Source of the DNA: a virus | Virus genome (UHGV): UHGV-0036384 | Length of the DNA: 64,000 bases | Reading direction: 5' to 3' (one strand) | Notes under the pieces: model-generated | Databases searched by the model: none | Told to the model about the DNA's origin: nothing | Seen by the model: the letters and a program-made list of their open reading frames with translations, nothing else | In this document: positions 21,650 through 23,070 of the stretch, one piece after another | Position numbering within the stretch: position 1 is the first letter of the stretch | Layout: every line of letters starts with the position of its first letter | Program-made: the position numbers and the translations under genes

Positions 21650-22114
21650 CAGGGTTTTCGTCATGGTTAGCGACTTTGCGGCGGTTTAGAAACTGACCAT
21701 TAAAGTAAATGCAAACGATGATCTGATGATGGTAGCGGCCTAAGAAGCCAGACGCCACGGGGTATGAGTCGTCCCCCGTCAAAAAATCGACCGCAGAGTG
21801 TCCCCGTCTGTGTATTAGGGAACGGGGAGGCACAACAGGTAAGGGCGCTGGTGTGATTAACCAGATGAACGAGAAGGGGCCATCTGTTGGTCAGCGTCCT
21901 TTCCTGTTGCGTCTTCTTTTCAGCGTAACAGCGGTGCTTAACAGCACTTTGGGTACAGTTCCACTAATTTACGGGTATATCCCGTCATGCTGAAGGCGCT
22001 AATCACGCTGGAAGCCAGGGTTATGCATCCCCTGTTACCGAATTGCAGCCAGGGCGCGGTGCGCCGAAAAGCATACGGAGGTGGAAGCCCTCGCCGGAGA
22101 CGTACCCGGCAAGT

Positions 22115-22190
22115 GATGGTGTAGCTCAGCGGTTAGAGCGGTTGACTGTTAATCAACGGGTCGATGGTTCAAATCCATCCACCATCGCCA
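22115..22190 (+). tRNA. tRNA-Asn (anticodon GUU)
   Basis: 76-nt cloverleaf: acceptor GATGGTG/CACCATC, anticodon loop CTGTTAA, T-loop TTCAAAT, 3' CCA encoded. Confidence 0.85.
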
Positions 22191-22192
22191 AT

Positions 22193-22268
22193 GCCGGTTT
22201 AGCTCAGTTGGTAGAGCGCCTGCCTTGTAAGCAGGATGTCAGCGGTTCGAGTCCGTTAATCGGCACCA
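22193..22268 (+). tRNA. tRNA-Thr (anticodon UGU)
   Basis: 76-nt cloverleaf: acceptor GCCGGTT/AATCGGC, anticodon loop CTTGTAA, T-loop TTCGAGT, CCA encoded. Confidence 0.85.
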
Positions 22269-23070
22269 GCACAACAGGTAAGGGTATTTTGCGACGTCGG
22301 AGATCGCCGAGCTTGGCAGAGGGTTCGAATCCCTACGAAGTACCCTTACCGTTGTGATGAATGCGCAGGCTGATGCGCGAAAGACATTGCAGCTATTGCG
22401 GAAAAGAGCTGTTCGGCGGGGCAATTAAACGCCCGTGAGAGTCTGAAATAACCGCAAGCCGGAGATCAGCACCGGTCATCACAACACAACAGGTAAGGGC
22501 ATTCTCCCTTATGGGGCTTGGCTTAAATGCATCGAGTGCTCTTACCGTTGTGATGAAGTGCAGCTCTTTGAAGCAACCAGAAGATAAGCATCTGGCTTCA
22601 CAACATAAACCGCAGGAACGACCAATAAACGGTAGTCCGTATGGAGAACACCCCGTTGAGGAAGAGGCCTGGCCGGAACCGTAACCGGCACTACAACGTT
22701 GAGAACACTGGCGTAACGGGGTCATATCCCAATCTACGAATAAATGTTGCGTTGCAGCGTGACAACCAGTGTTCTCAACATTGTGGTGAATGCACAGGCT
22801 GATGTGCCGCAACTACAGTAGTGCGCGCTTTGCGGGGCTTGCTACAACCCTGTGTCGGAGTTCAGCACCGACCATCACAGTTTGATTCTCTGGCATGAGC
22901 ATAACGCTGAAATAAGTCCAGCCTGGTGCGGCCCGATCACCCGCCGTTAGCTCCACGAAACGGAGCACGTAACAGGTAAGAGCATTCTCCTGTAACGGGT
23001 TCATATCCCAATCTACAGGTCCACCAAGAATGCTCTTTCCGTTGCGGTGAATGCGGCTAAGCGCACGCGG
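22269..23070 (+). repeat. family of long hairpin repeat modules with tRNA T-arm-like cores (an outlying upstream copy is at 21831)
   Basis: Recurring CACAACAGGTAAGGG ... CTTACCGTTGTGATGAA inverted stems (22270, 22481, 22990) with internal ggttcgaatccc / gggttcatatccc motifs and a shared 3' motif GTGATGAATGCGCAGGCTGATGCGC. Confidence 0.45.

Follow-up and report, generated by a model that had tools for sequence, protein, structure and literature searches.

A modular array of long hairpins, tRNA genes and framed RNA domains in the ban operon region of a P1-like phage, with a possible role in RNase III processing

The DNA analyzed here, referred to below as the window, is the 64,000-nucleotide (nt) stretch of UHGV virus genome UHGV-0036384, which sequence comparison identifies as a P1-like phage. 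Our subject is a stretch of about 1.7 kb directly 3' of the dmt open reading frame (ORF; 19178-21442) that holds two transfer RNA (tRNA) genes, five long hairpins (LHs), named M1 to M5, and structured domains between them. In BLAST comparisons, 1.76 kb around these modules is 99.9% identical to vB_EcoM-813R1, 99.5% identical to RCS47 and 98.9% identical, at 88% coverage, to reference P1. The end of dmt carries the C1 operator Op72 and the Pban promoters (21433..21462, + strand), which we transferred from the P1 annotation (AF234172) through a 99% alignment; a repeat search recovered the Op72 site as the inverted repeat TATTGCTCTAATAAA/TTTATTAGTGTAATA (21432-21461). In the P1 annotation, Op72 and the promoters P1ban and P2ban at the dmt end are followed, all on the plus strand, by a “dicF-like region”, tRNA-Asn, tRNA-Thr, further genes, trnI and ban. 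The stretch thus appears to form the core, itself untranslated, of the early operon that C1 controls at Pban, provided that transcription from Pban continues through a terminator ending at 21650, and Pban would be the promoter that drives the entire array. The trnA and trnI genes of the Pban operon have been read out in P1vir infection (10.64898/2025.12.28.696737). A literature search on P1 ban-operon RNAs and phage elements resembling transfer-messenger RNA (tmRNA) yielded nothing relevant beyond the papers cited here.

The two tRNAs, which a sequence-only reading of this DNA had called bona fide, are tRNA-Asn (anticodon GTT; 22115..22190, + strand; ARAGORN, Rfam 74.5 bits) and tRNA-Thr (anticodon TGT; 22193..22268, + strand; ARAGORN, Rfam 72.9 bits), and the CCA end of the latter abuts M2. 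All five LHs are on the same strand as the tRNAs, and each has a stem of 18-30 bp whose base, CACAAC-A-GGUAAG / CUUUCC-GUUGUG, is conserved and whose tip is hypervariable. M1 (21828-21914, +; inverted repeat I2) has 23-nt arms, a paired A7 and a tip without a T-arm, and folds at -47.3 kcal/mol (z -5.6). M2 (22270-22356, +), found as an inverted repeat and by folding, has about 21 bp and a bulged A. M3 (22485-22552, +) was found by folding. M4 (22689-22788, +; inverted repeat I1) has 23-nt arms that are 91% complementary; its arm sequence is unlike that of the other copies but the pairing is retained, with a fold of -49.2 kcal/mol (z -6.1). M5 (22968-23046, +), again an inverted repeat with a supporting fold, is preceded by a small conserved hairpin, GCTCCacgaaacGGAGC (22950-22966), that also occurs 5' of LHs in the sequences L051 and L065. 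Folding z-scores for M1 to M5 range from -4.5 to -6.1, and 0 of 200 dinucleotide shuffles were as stable.

The repeats are far beyond chance. The 5' arm word AACAGGTAAGRG, with at most one mismatch, occurs five times in the window compared to 0.33 expected, and four of these occurrences are in the array, all on the plus strand. A 25-nt 3' motif, GTGRTGAATGCRCAGGCTGATGYGC, is present in two copies (22354 and 22783) compared to 0 expected, and degraded copies (repeat family D1) lie 3' of M3 and M5. The sequence-only reading placed at least four modules here with a shared 3' motif; the repeats are where it put them, but their number is five, and the motif, exact twice and degenerate after M3 and M5, is missing from M1.

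To place these hairpins in a family, 29 to 31 homologous LHs were collected, the count varying by test. They come from the P1-like phages and plasmids P1, P7, D6, Ro157c2YLVW and p95_MLI121, and from the lambdoid phages mEp460 and HK633, the Qin prophage, the Klebsiella Ackermannvirus Magnus, the siphovirus swi2, the Felix-O1-like phage SUSP2 and uncultured viral contigs. We used trimmed-arm alignments because the variable tips would dominate a covariance model. In 29 LHs the stem is 17 to 30 steps long, and 564 of 592 steps are Watson-Crick (515) or G.U (49); the rest are 6 A.C and 22 mismatches of other kinds. G.U thus outnumbers A.C eightfold, which indicates that the folding strand is the tRNA strand. 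Across 20 LHs taken from P1-like, lambdoid, Ackermannviridae and uncultured phages, a 21-pair stem is 88.8% paired, compared to 38-57% when the partner is slid; both sides have changed in 11 of the 21 pairs, and none of 500 shuffles equals these values. Sequence is conserved at the base (CACAAC / GUUGUG) and over the dozen pairs that follow it; further out the stem covaries, and the tips have neither sequence nor length in common. The sixth pair is followed by a bulged A, position 10/44 is a conserved U.U mismatch in 14 of 20 copies, and the stems end GUUGUG-(A/G)UGAAUGC. More distant phages (Det7, Kevin and Aeromonas pAh6-C) have hairpins in equivalent places with other arm sequences. The modules are thus conserved RNA structures. 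We also considered a “giant cloverleaf” built by pairing across the cargo, the 3' arm of each LH with the 5' arm of its downstream neighbour, but rejected it: M4 and lineage-specific arms pair only inside their own hairpin, and an upstream hairpin is missing in swi2 and SUSP2.

These pairing patterns bear on the existing annotation. The gene that the sequence-only reading named plp (23414-24241) encodes an SPFH/Band-7 lipoprotein, whereas the plp and upl genes of P1 (AF234172 69472-70041) lie on the minus strand over the modules themselves (window 22239-23142). If the small proteins Plp and Upl were encoded as annotated, the repeats would be incidental. Reference P1 does annotate plp (125 amino acids) and upl (63 amino acids) with predicted promoters, and the window has minus-strand ORFs of 139 and 109 amino acids. 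However, ORF lengths and boundaries differ between P1 and the window despite DNA that is about 99% identical outside a single-unit indel, which itself rewrites the ORFs; no ORF over the modules has a Pfam match, in line with the earlier statement that the region has no convincing ORF; and the homologous DNA is left unannotated in many phage records. Covariation and the G.U bias point to selection on sense-strand RNA pairing. We consider the coding explanation very improbable, and plp and upl are probably mis-annotations.

The hairpin tips contain an unexpected signal. The canonical T-loop word G[GT]TC[GA]A[ACT]TC is found in 8 of 31 LH tips, compared to about 0.08 expected, an enrichment of roughly 100-fold, and in five of these eight tips the T-arm is 4 to 9 nt from the 3' arm. 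In the window, M2 has a canonical T-arm, GGGTTCGAATCCC, 7 nt from its 3' arm, while the M4 and M5 tips (GGGTCATATCCC and GGGTTCATATCCC) misfit a T-loop at position 58. The T-arm-like cores that had been reported are thus not accidental, but they are absent or non-canonical in M1, M3, M4 and M5. One interpretation of this finding is that the modules are decayed tRNA genes, or decoys for tRNA-targeting nucleases or tRNA-modifying enzymes. The placement of those five T-arms beside what would be an acceptor strand, the position of the modules among tRNA genes in many phages and the Tad2 gene downstream of the array in one related plasmid would fit this idea. Nevertheless, the Rfam tRNA model at E<=10 (21300-24500) and default ARAGORN detected no module, and the latter called nothing in 31 hairpins; the relaxed Rfam search returned only tRNA-Asn, tRNA-Thr and a third tRNA with a CAT anticodon (Met; 24269-24344; ARAGORN and Rfam). 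Relaxed ARAGORN on the hairpins gave three calls at an 80% threshold that we judged to be noise, one of them on the wrong strand and one a swi2 “tRNA-Ala” without G3.U70. Twenty-three of the 31 tips have no T-loop, and in phage Ro157c2YLVW the orthologue of M5 lacks the T-loop-like piece. A 7-bp acceptor stem like that of a tRNA, an anticodon arm and a CCA end are absent from every module, and covariation and conservation act on the 20-bp stem and the frames described below rather than on a cloverleaf, with the tip hypervariable and dispensable between orthologues. The proposals that the modules are degenerate tRNA genes or tRNA decoys are not supported, and we regard the tRNA or decoy explanation as unlikely; the tips may nonetheless be remnants of tRNA or tmRNA acceptor pieces.

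A framed domain follows each of M2, M3, M4 and M5, giving four in the window. The frame consists of a closing stem of 6-9 bp (GUGGUGA...UCACCAC) that overlaps the hairpin base by 3 nt, a 5' hairpin (GCGCA-GGCUGA-UGCGC) and a 3' hairpin (GCCGG-AGAUCAGCA-CCGGC) abutting the closing strand. Compared across 16 distinct copies, these three helices with their 19 pairs are 95.4% paired, against 27-58% when slid; seven pairs are changed on both sides, and the loops are invariant. The interior, 40-180 nt in the general scheme of the frame and 89-234 nt in the copies measured, is hypervariable and unrelated between copies. Framed domain 1 (22351..22485, +) was identified from inverted repeats I21/I22, BLAST and frame covariation; it has the closing stem GTTGTGATGA/TCATCACAAC and the hairpins GCGCAggctgaTGCGC (22363-22378) and GCCGGagatcagcaCCGGT (22458-22476) with the variable interior between them. 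BLAST finds a counterpart with 97-98% identity in the PL leaders of the lambdoid phage mEp460 and of Stx2 phages, where it precedes a DicF-like small RNA (sRNA) and another hairpin. The short framed domain 2 (22547-22604, +; direct-repeat family D2) reads GTTGTGATGAAG ... CCAGAagataagcaTCTGG ... TTCACAAC and, with an 84-nt spacer, fills the region 22547..22688 (+). Framed domain 3 (22780..22881, +) consists of GTGGTGAATGC, the hairpins GCACAggctgaTGTGC and TCGGagttcagcaCCGA, and then CCATCACA, and both of its hairpins are compensatory relative to framed domain 1.

Framed domain 4 (23043..23163, +) is closed by the stem TGCGGTG/CACCGCA, has a T-run after it at 23166-23171 and resembles a known sRNA family. 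It matches the Rfam STnc100 model (RF02076) at 37.8 bits (E 5.8e-6), under the gathering score of 47, as does the copy in p95_MLI121 (L008) at 39.1 bits; framed domains 1-3 gave no match to this model. The STnc100-type closing stem and the 5' and 3' hairpins are present, as seen in the cmscan structure line and in the covariation of the 16 frames. [quoted passage not shown] The framed domains are probably related to these Hfq-binding sRNAs and could function as sRNAs, a suggestion that we base on sequence and predicted structure.

The cargo between LHs varies from phage to phage. In the window it comprises the two real tRNAs and the four framed domains, and in various phages the LH-bounded slot holds a tRNA, a framed domain or a tmRNA-like body. 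For example, a tRNA-Arg lies directly 3' of the hairpin 3' arm in an enterotoxigenic Escherichia coli prophage (L007) and in SUSP2, a tRNA-Ser lies between frame and hairpin in D6 and P7, and a tRNA-Tyr is inserted between tRNA-Asn and tRNA-Thr in Ro157c2YLVW. In plasmid p95_MLI121 the tRNAs follow the order Arg-Tyr-Thr ... Ser ... Ile, with the same hairpins set among them. The array of this P1/D6-like plasmid is followed closely by a gene of the Thoeris anti-defence Tad2 family (L008:3196-3771), which places that array in an anti-defence neighbourhood. Reference P1 (L001) lacks exactly one frame and hairpin unit, framed domain 1 plus M3 (window 22345-22560). The 97-98% identity of this extra unit to lambdoid/Stx2 sequence suggests unit-wise exchange between P1-like and lambdoid phages. 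Parts of 22269-23170 were matched in 224 phage records, 2838 of 5426 complete E. coli genomes carry the lambdoid version, and the scaffold modules span at least five unrelated phage morphotypes.

Such shuffling raises the possibility that the LHs act as DNA, namely as recombination or cassette-exchange sites (folded strands like attC, or palindromes like miniature inverted-repeat transposable elements) that move RNA-gene cassettes. This would account for exchangeable cargo between near-identical inverted repeats in unrelated phage families, for the one-unit copy difference between P1 and the window and for the near-identity of that unit in P1-like and lambdoid phages; the CACAAC/GTTGTG ends and the extrahelical A also recall the R''/R' boxes of attC sites. 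On the other hand, the ends (G)CACAAC ... GTTGTG(G/A) misfit the attC consensus RYYYAAC/GTTRRRY, and no integron-type integrase or transposase is annotated beside the arrays in P1, P7, D6, HK633, SUSP2, Magnus or swi2. The hairpins are always oriented as the RNA genes are, with the ratio of G.U to A.C (49:6) that RNA pairing predicts, and homologous recombination between the repeated arms suffices to explain the shuffling. A DNA-site function thus seems quite unlikely.

Immediately upstream of M1, just outside the coordinates covered by the sequence-only reading, lies an unannotated element that abuts the hairpin directly. It is a tmRNA-like body without a tRNA-like domain (TLD; 21652..21829, +), recognized from its sequence, the Rfam tmRNA_permuted model, its tag family and pseudoknot covariation. 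The body comprises a 5' hairpin, a resume codon GCA at 21711, a tag ANDDLMMVAA (21711-21740) and a stop codon (21741-21743), and reads UUUUCGU...UAAAU GCA AAC GAU GAU CUG AUG AUG GUA GCG GCC UAA, a tmRNA-type resume context. The E. coli tmRNA tag is ANDENYALAA. Tags in relatives of the phage element (ANEEMYLAVA, ANDDVVLMAA, ANDDLMLMAA, ANDEQFLAVA, ANDNVFLAVA, ANDNTFLAVA and ANDNAFLMAA) are always 10 codons long, with a degradation-type tail followed by a stop and a tmRNA-like composition. Two pseudoknots follow the tag, the first formed by S1 (21757-62/21774-79) and S2 (21768-71/21788-91) and the second by 21793-97/21808-12 and 21802-07/21822-27. In 17 diverse phages, S1 of the post-tag H-type pseudoknot is 100% paired and S2 is 89.7% paired, with three pairs each changed on both sides; S2 occurs as GUCG/CGAC, CCAG/CUGG, CCGA/UCGG, CUAG/CUAG and CCAA/UUGG. 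A stem of the second knot is 91.8% paired in the same set. The Rfam permuted-tmRNA model (RF04321) scores 24.1 bits over the resume and tag region with all 111 TLD positions skipped, and in marine viral contigs that share the resume word ARAGORN calls complete permuted tmRNAs.

The body has BLAST matches in 327 phage records, nearly all unannotated. Its hosts include P1-like and lambdoid phages, the N4-like phage PD38, the Ackermannviridae Det7, Kevin and Magnus, the Drexlerviridae phage CS01, Aeromonas and Vibrio phages and Felix-O1-like phages. A TLD (G3.U70 acceptor, T-arm and CCA) was found neither in the upstream sequence nor in the rest of the 64-kb window at Rfam E<=0.5, and ARAGORN called no tmRNA. 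Similarly, the complete 41.5-kb genome of HK633 has the body in its late leader and gave no tRNA, tmRNA or TLD match. Promoter-like hexamers were seen by eye directly 5' of UUUUCG in swi2, SUSP2, L067 and pYD38-A. Pairing of the 5' UUUUCG with CGAAAG-like words in downstream tips, as an analogue of tmRNA helix 2, was rejected as chance because the words are present in swi2, HK633 and L081 but absent in SUSP2 and L075. We make no claim for an upstream pseudoknot (PK1) from CUUUG/CAAAG, for which the apparent compensatory change in PD38 and Kevin falls at shifted columns. Beside the body, ARAGORN reports an unusual “tRNA-Cys” with anticodon ACA in PD38 (L135:1073-1151) and in the Serratia phage Kevin (L134:679-768), with acceptor stems that look imperfect. 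The spacer before tRNA-Asn (21915..22114, +), known to us from reading the sequence, has a hairpin, GCCGGagacgtaCCCGGC, just 5' of the tRNA and, by eye, a pseudoknot-like stretch at about 22013-22055. This stretch, CCAGGG-UUAUGCAU-CCCCUG...GAAUUGCAGCC, looks like the pseudoknot that follows the tag in a viral tmRNA-like element (L052: CCAAGG..CCUUG plus CUGAA/UUCAG); M1 and tRNA-Asn may thus enclose the decayed remains of a second piece derived from a tmRNA.

Long hairpins flank the body in almost every phage, and it therefore appears to be one more cargo of the hairpin system. Surveyed phage tmRNAs are complete genes or the TLD-only form of mycobacteriophage DS6A (PMC4131195, PMC11915505), and we found no description of a body-only form in a non-exhaustive literature search. 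We speculate that the hairpin and frame modules and the body might act together as a single phage system for intervening in ribosome rescue. In this view RNase III would excise the body, which is under selection at the peptide level, at the flanking LHs. Once released, it would serve either as a decoy for body-binding factors (SmpB, S1 and RNase R) or, in trans, as an alternative template for tagging, with a T-arm partner supplied by the host or by a hairpin, so that stalled proteins would be re-labelled in infected cells. We regard this proposal as unlikely.

An explanation for the LHs comes from Qin, a prophage in E. coli K-12. Qin contains an LH homologue (L133:17172-17262) with the arms CCAUAAC-G-CGAAAGCGCAUGG / CCGUGCGCUUCCGGUUGUGG, followed in order by a 137-nt element, DicF, an STnc100-like frame with a long closing stem, and then dicB. 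The 137-nt segment upstream of dicF (L133:17262-17382) is homologous by eye to window positions 21497-21600, which form part of a DicF-precursor-like element (21497..21650, +) that corresponds to the “dicF-like region” of the P1 annotation. This element ends in an intrinsic terminator found by a terminator scan, and its last part (21600-21650) is an sRNA-like hairpin at the position of DicF. We rejected its identification as DicF, since the position and the upstream element are shared and the sequence is not. As cited in a later paper, Faubladier 1990 reports a 190-nt DicF species that is lost in an rnc mutant and whose 5' end was placed by primer extension (10.1101/2023.04.14.536235). Counting 190 nt back from the DicF 3' end, we arrive at about L133:17246-17250, inside the 3' arm of the LH. 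In addition, a published transcriptome comparison gives an rnc-dependent site at 1649470 (L133:17471), flagged as known, that lies inside the frame downstream of dicF (PMC5371410 Table S1). The LH stems have the length that RNase III requires, about two turns (>=20 bp) of near-continuous double-stranded RNA.

We therefore favour the interpretation that the LHs are RNase III processing and insulator hairpins in a polycistronic RNA-gene array, to which, arguing by analogy with Qin, we assign a probability of roughly 55%. This is close to the “processing elements or small RNAs” that the sequence-only reading had offered among its options. When C1 repression is lifted, a single long transcript would be made. 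Its LH stems would be double-stranded substrates for host RNase III and, at the same time, structural insulators that let their neighbours fold independently. Cleavage within the stems would free tRNA precursors, sRNA domains and the upstream tmRNA-like body, and the released pieces would be trimmed by RNase E, RNase P and exonucleases, with the frames acting as scaffolds for sRNA-like cargo. The modules could then be described as a widespread variant of RNase III-processed phage RNA precursors and STnc100/PasD-type sRNAs, laid out as a modular array. What we observe directly is the set of structures with their conservation and covariation, which strand folds, how the hairpins alternate with cargo and how widely the modules are spread among phages. 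Cleavage by RNase III is suggested by the homologous Qin site, and co-transcription past the terminator and an sRNA function of the framed domains are proposed. The tRNA or decoy, DNA-site, boxA (discussed below) and minus-strand explanations fit the conservation pattern less well than processing does.

Several points weigh against this interpretation. The experimental evidence that bears on LH function comes, by analogy, solely from the Qin homologue; there, the cut position is computed from a gel-sized 190-nt species and is not a published nucleotide, and the Table S1 site at 1649470 (PMC5371410) is supported by 26 reads. Since RNase III does not depend on a conserved sequence, this enzyme by itself does not explain why the stem base, the bulged A and the U.U mismatch are so strictly kept, and their conservation hints at a specific partner besides RNase III. 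Ordinary operons free tRNAs by RNase P and RNase E without such hairpins, and the processing model does not account for the T-loop enrichment in LH tips. Finally, the strong intrinsic terminator at 21623-21650 separates Pban from the array, so read-through is needed to reach the tRNAs, the modules and ban. An internal consensus promoter was looked for in the array by promoter and terminator scan and none was found.

The need for read-through at 21650 is itself a reason to ask whether the LHs are antitermination or anti-Rho elements, similar to boxA/nut or put sites, that let polymerase cross about 2.7 kb of untranslated RNA to ban. The 3' arm of most copies has UGCUCUUU, the core of the boxA of rrn operons (the boxA consensus is YGCUCUUUA), followed by GU-rich GUUGUGG/GGUGUGG. 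Homologues lie in the PL leader of mEp460 and in the leader between PR' and holin in HK633, which are classical antitermination sites. However, the boxA-like word is base-paired inside the 20-bp helix rather than single-stranded, and in the window it is present in M5, whereas M2, M3 and M4 deviate from it (CCCUUACC, GCUCUUACC and GUUCUCAAC). Hairpins of Ackermannviridae and Aeromonas phages keep the helix but not the word, and HK633 has N and Q, with nut and qut annotated elsewhere. We find antitermination distinctly improbable as the function of the LHs.

Additional structured RNAs were noted in the window. Directly 3' of the tRNA with the CAT anticodon lies a conserved structured element of about 190 nt (24346-24535) with no Rfam match. 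Its homologues are found in the mEp460 PL leader (L002:2755-2935), before the prophage tRNA-Arg (L007:2495-2680) and in p95_MLI121 (L008:2746-2928), and in the four sequences 10 of 49 predicted pairs have compensatory changes. Rfam matches at gathering level to isrK, C4 antisense RNA and sok (824-902, 947-1034 and 4865-5039) correspond to the known P1 immunity RNA (c4) and hok/sok-type RNAs, which are ordinary for a P1-like phage.

Although P1 is a textbook phage, the annotation of its Pban operon fills some 1.7 kb with two doubtful minus-strand proteins, where our results indicate a modular RNA-gene array whose layout recurs, largely unannotated, in hundreds of unrelated phages. If this view is right, the P1 annotation would be corrected, and the prophage sRNAs DicF precursor and STnc100/PasD would have a common origin and maturation route. 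A modular array would also account for the swapping of tRNA and sRNA cassettes between phages. The body without a TLD, the reverse of the known TLD-only phage tmRNA, raises the question of whether enterobacterial phages tamper with trans-translation.

The array can be compared with several known systems. In ribosomal RNA (rRNA) operons and T7 early mRNA, long near-perfect RNase III helices lie between functional units, and internal loops or bulges are thought to tune cleavage. The rRNA stems enclose their product, whereas the LHs of the window are local hairpins between products; the sequence of the LH stem base is kept across unrelated phages, which RNase III does not require. The T4 tRNA cluster yields, from a common precursor, tRNAs and the stable “species 1 and 2” RNAs of unknown function, which are tRNA-like with CCA ends. 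Likened by description, the T4 cluster and the array are both phage operons that mix tRNAs with other small stable RNAs, but the modules of the window are not tRNA-like and have no CCA ends. The Qin dicBF operon has an LH homologue, a pre-DicF element, an sRNA with terminator and an STnc100-like frame in a similar order. It differs in having one hairpin and one frame among protein genes, compared to five LHs and four frames with tRNAs and a tmRNA-like body in the window, and the window sRNA at the DicF position has another sequence. With STnc100 and PasD, the framed domains share a 7-bp closing stem, a 5' hairpin past a short linker and a 3' hairpin against the closing strand, as well as a prophage context beside TerB-like genes and tRNAs. 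Framed domain 4 is, however, below the family threshold, and Hfq binding and targets are known for the E. coli and Salmonella prophage copies alone. Finally, the features that the upstream body has in common with permuted two-piece tmRNAs are the resume motif UAAAU-GCA-AAC-GA, a tag of 10 codons with hydrophobic-Ala-Ala at its end, a stop codon located in the loop of a helix, and pseudoknots downstream. The TLD-only tmRNA of DS6A provides a precedent for a partial phage tmRNA (PMC4131195), and the element in the window is the opposite truncation, a body and tag without the TLD.

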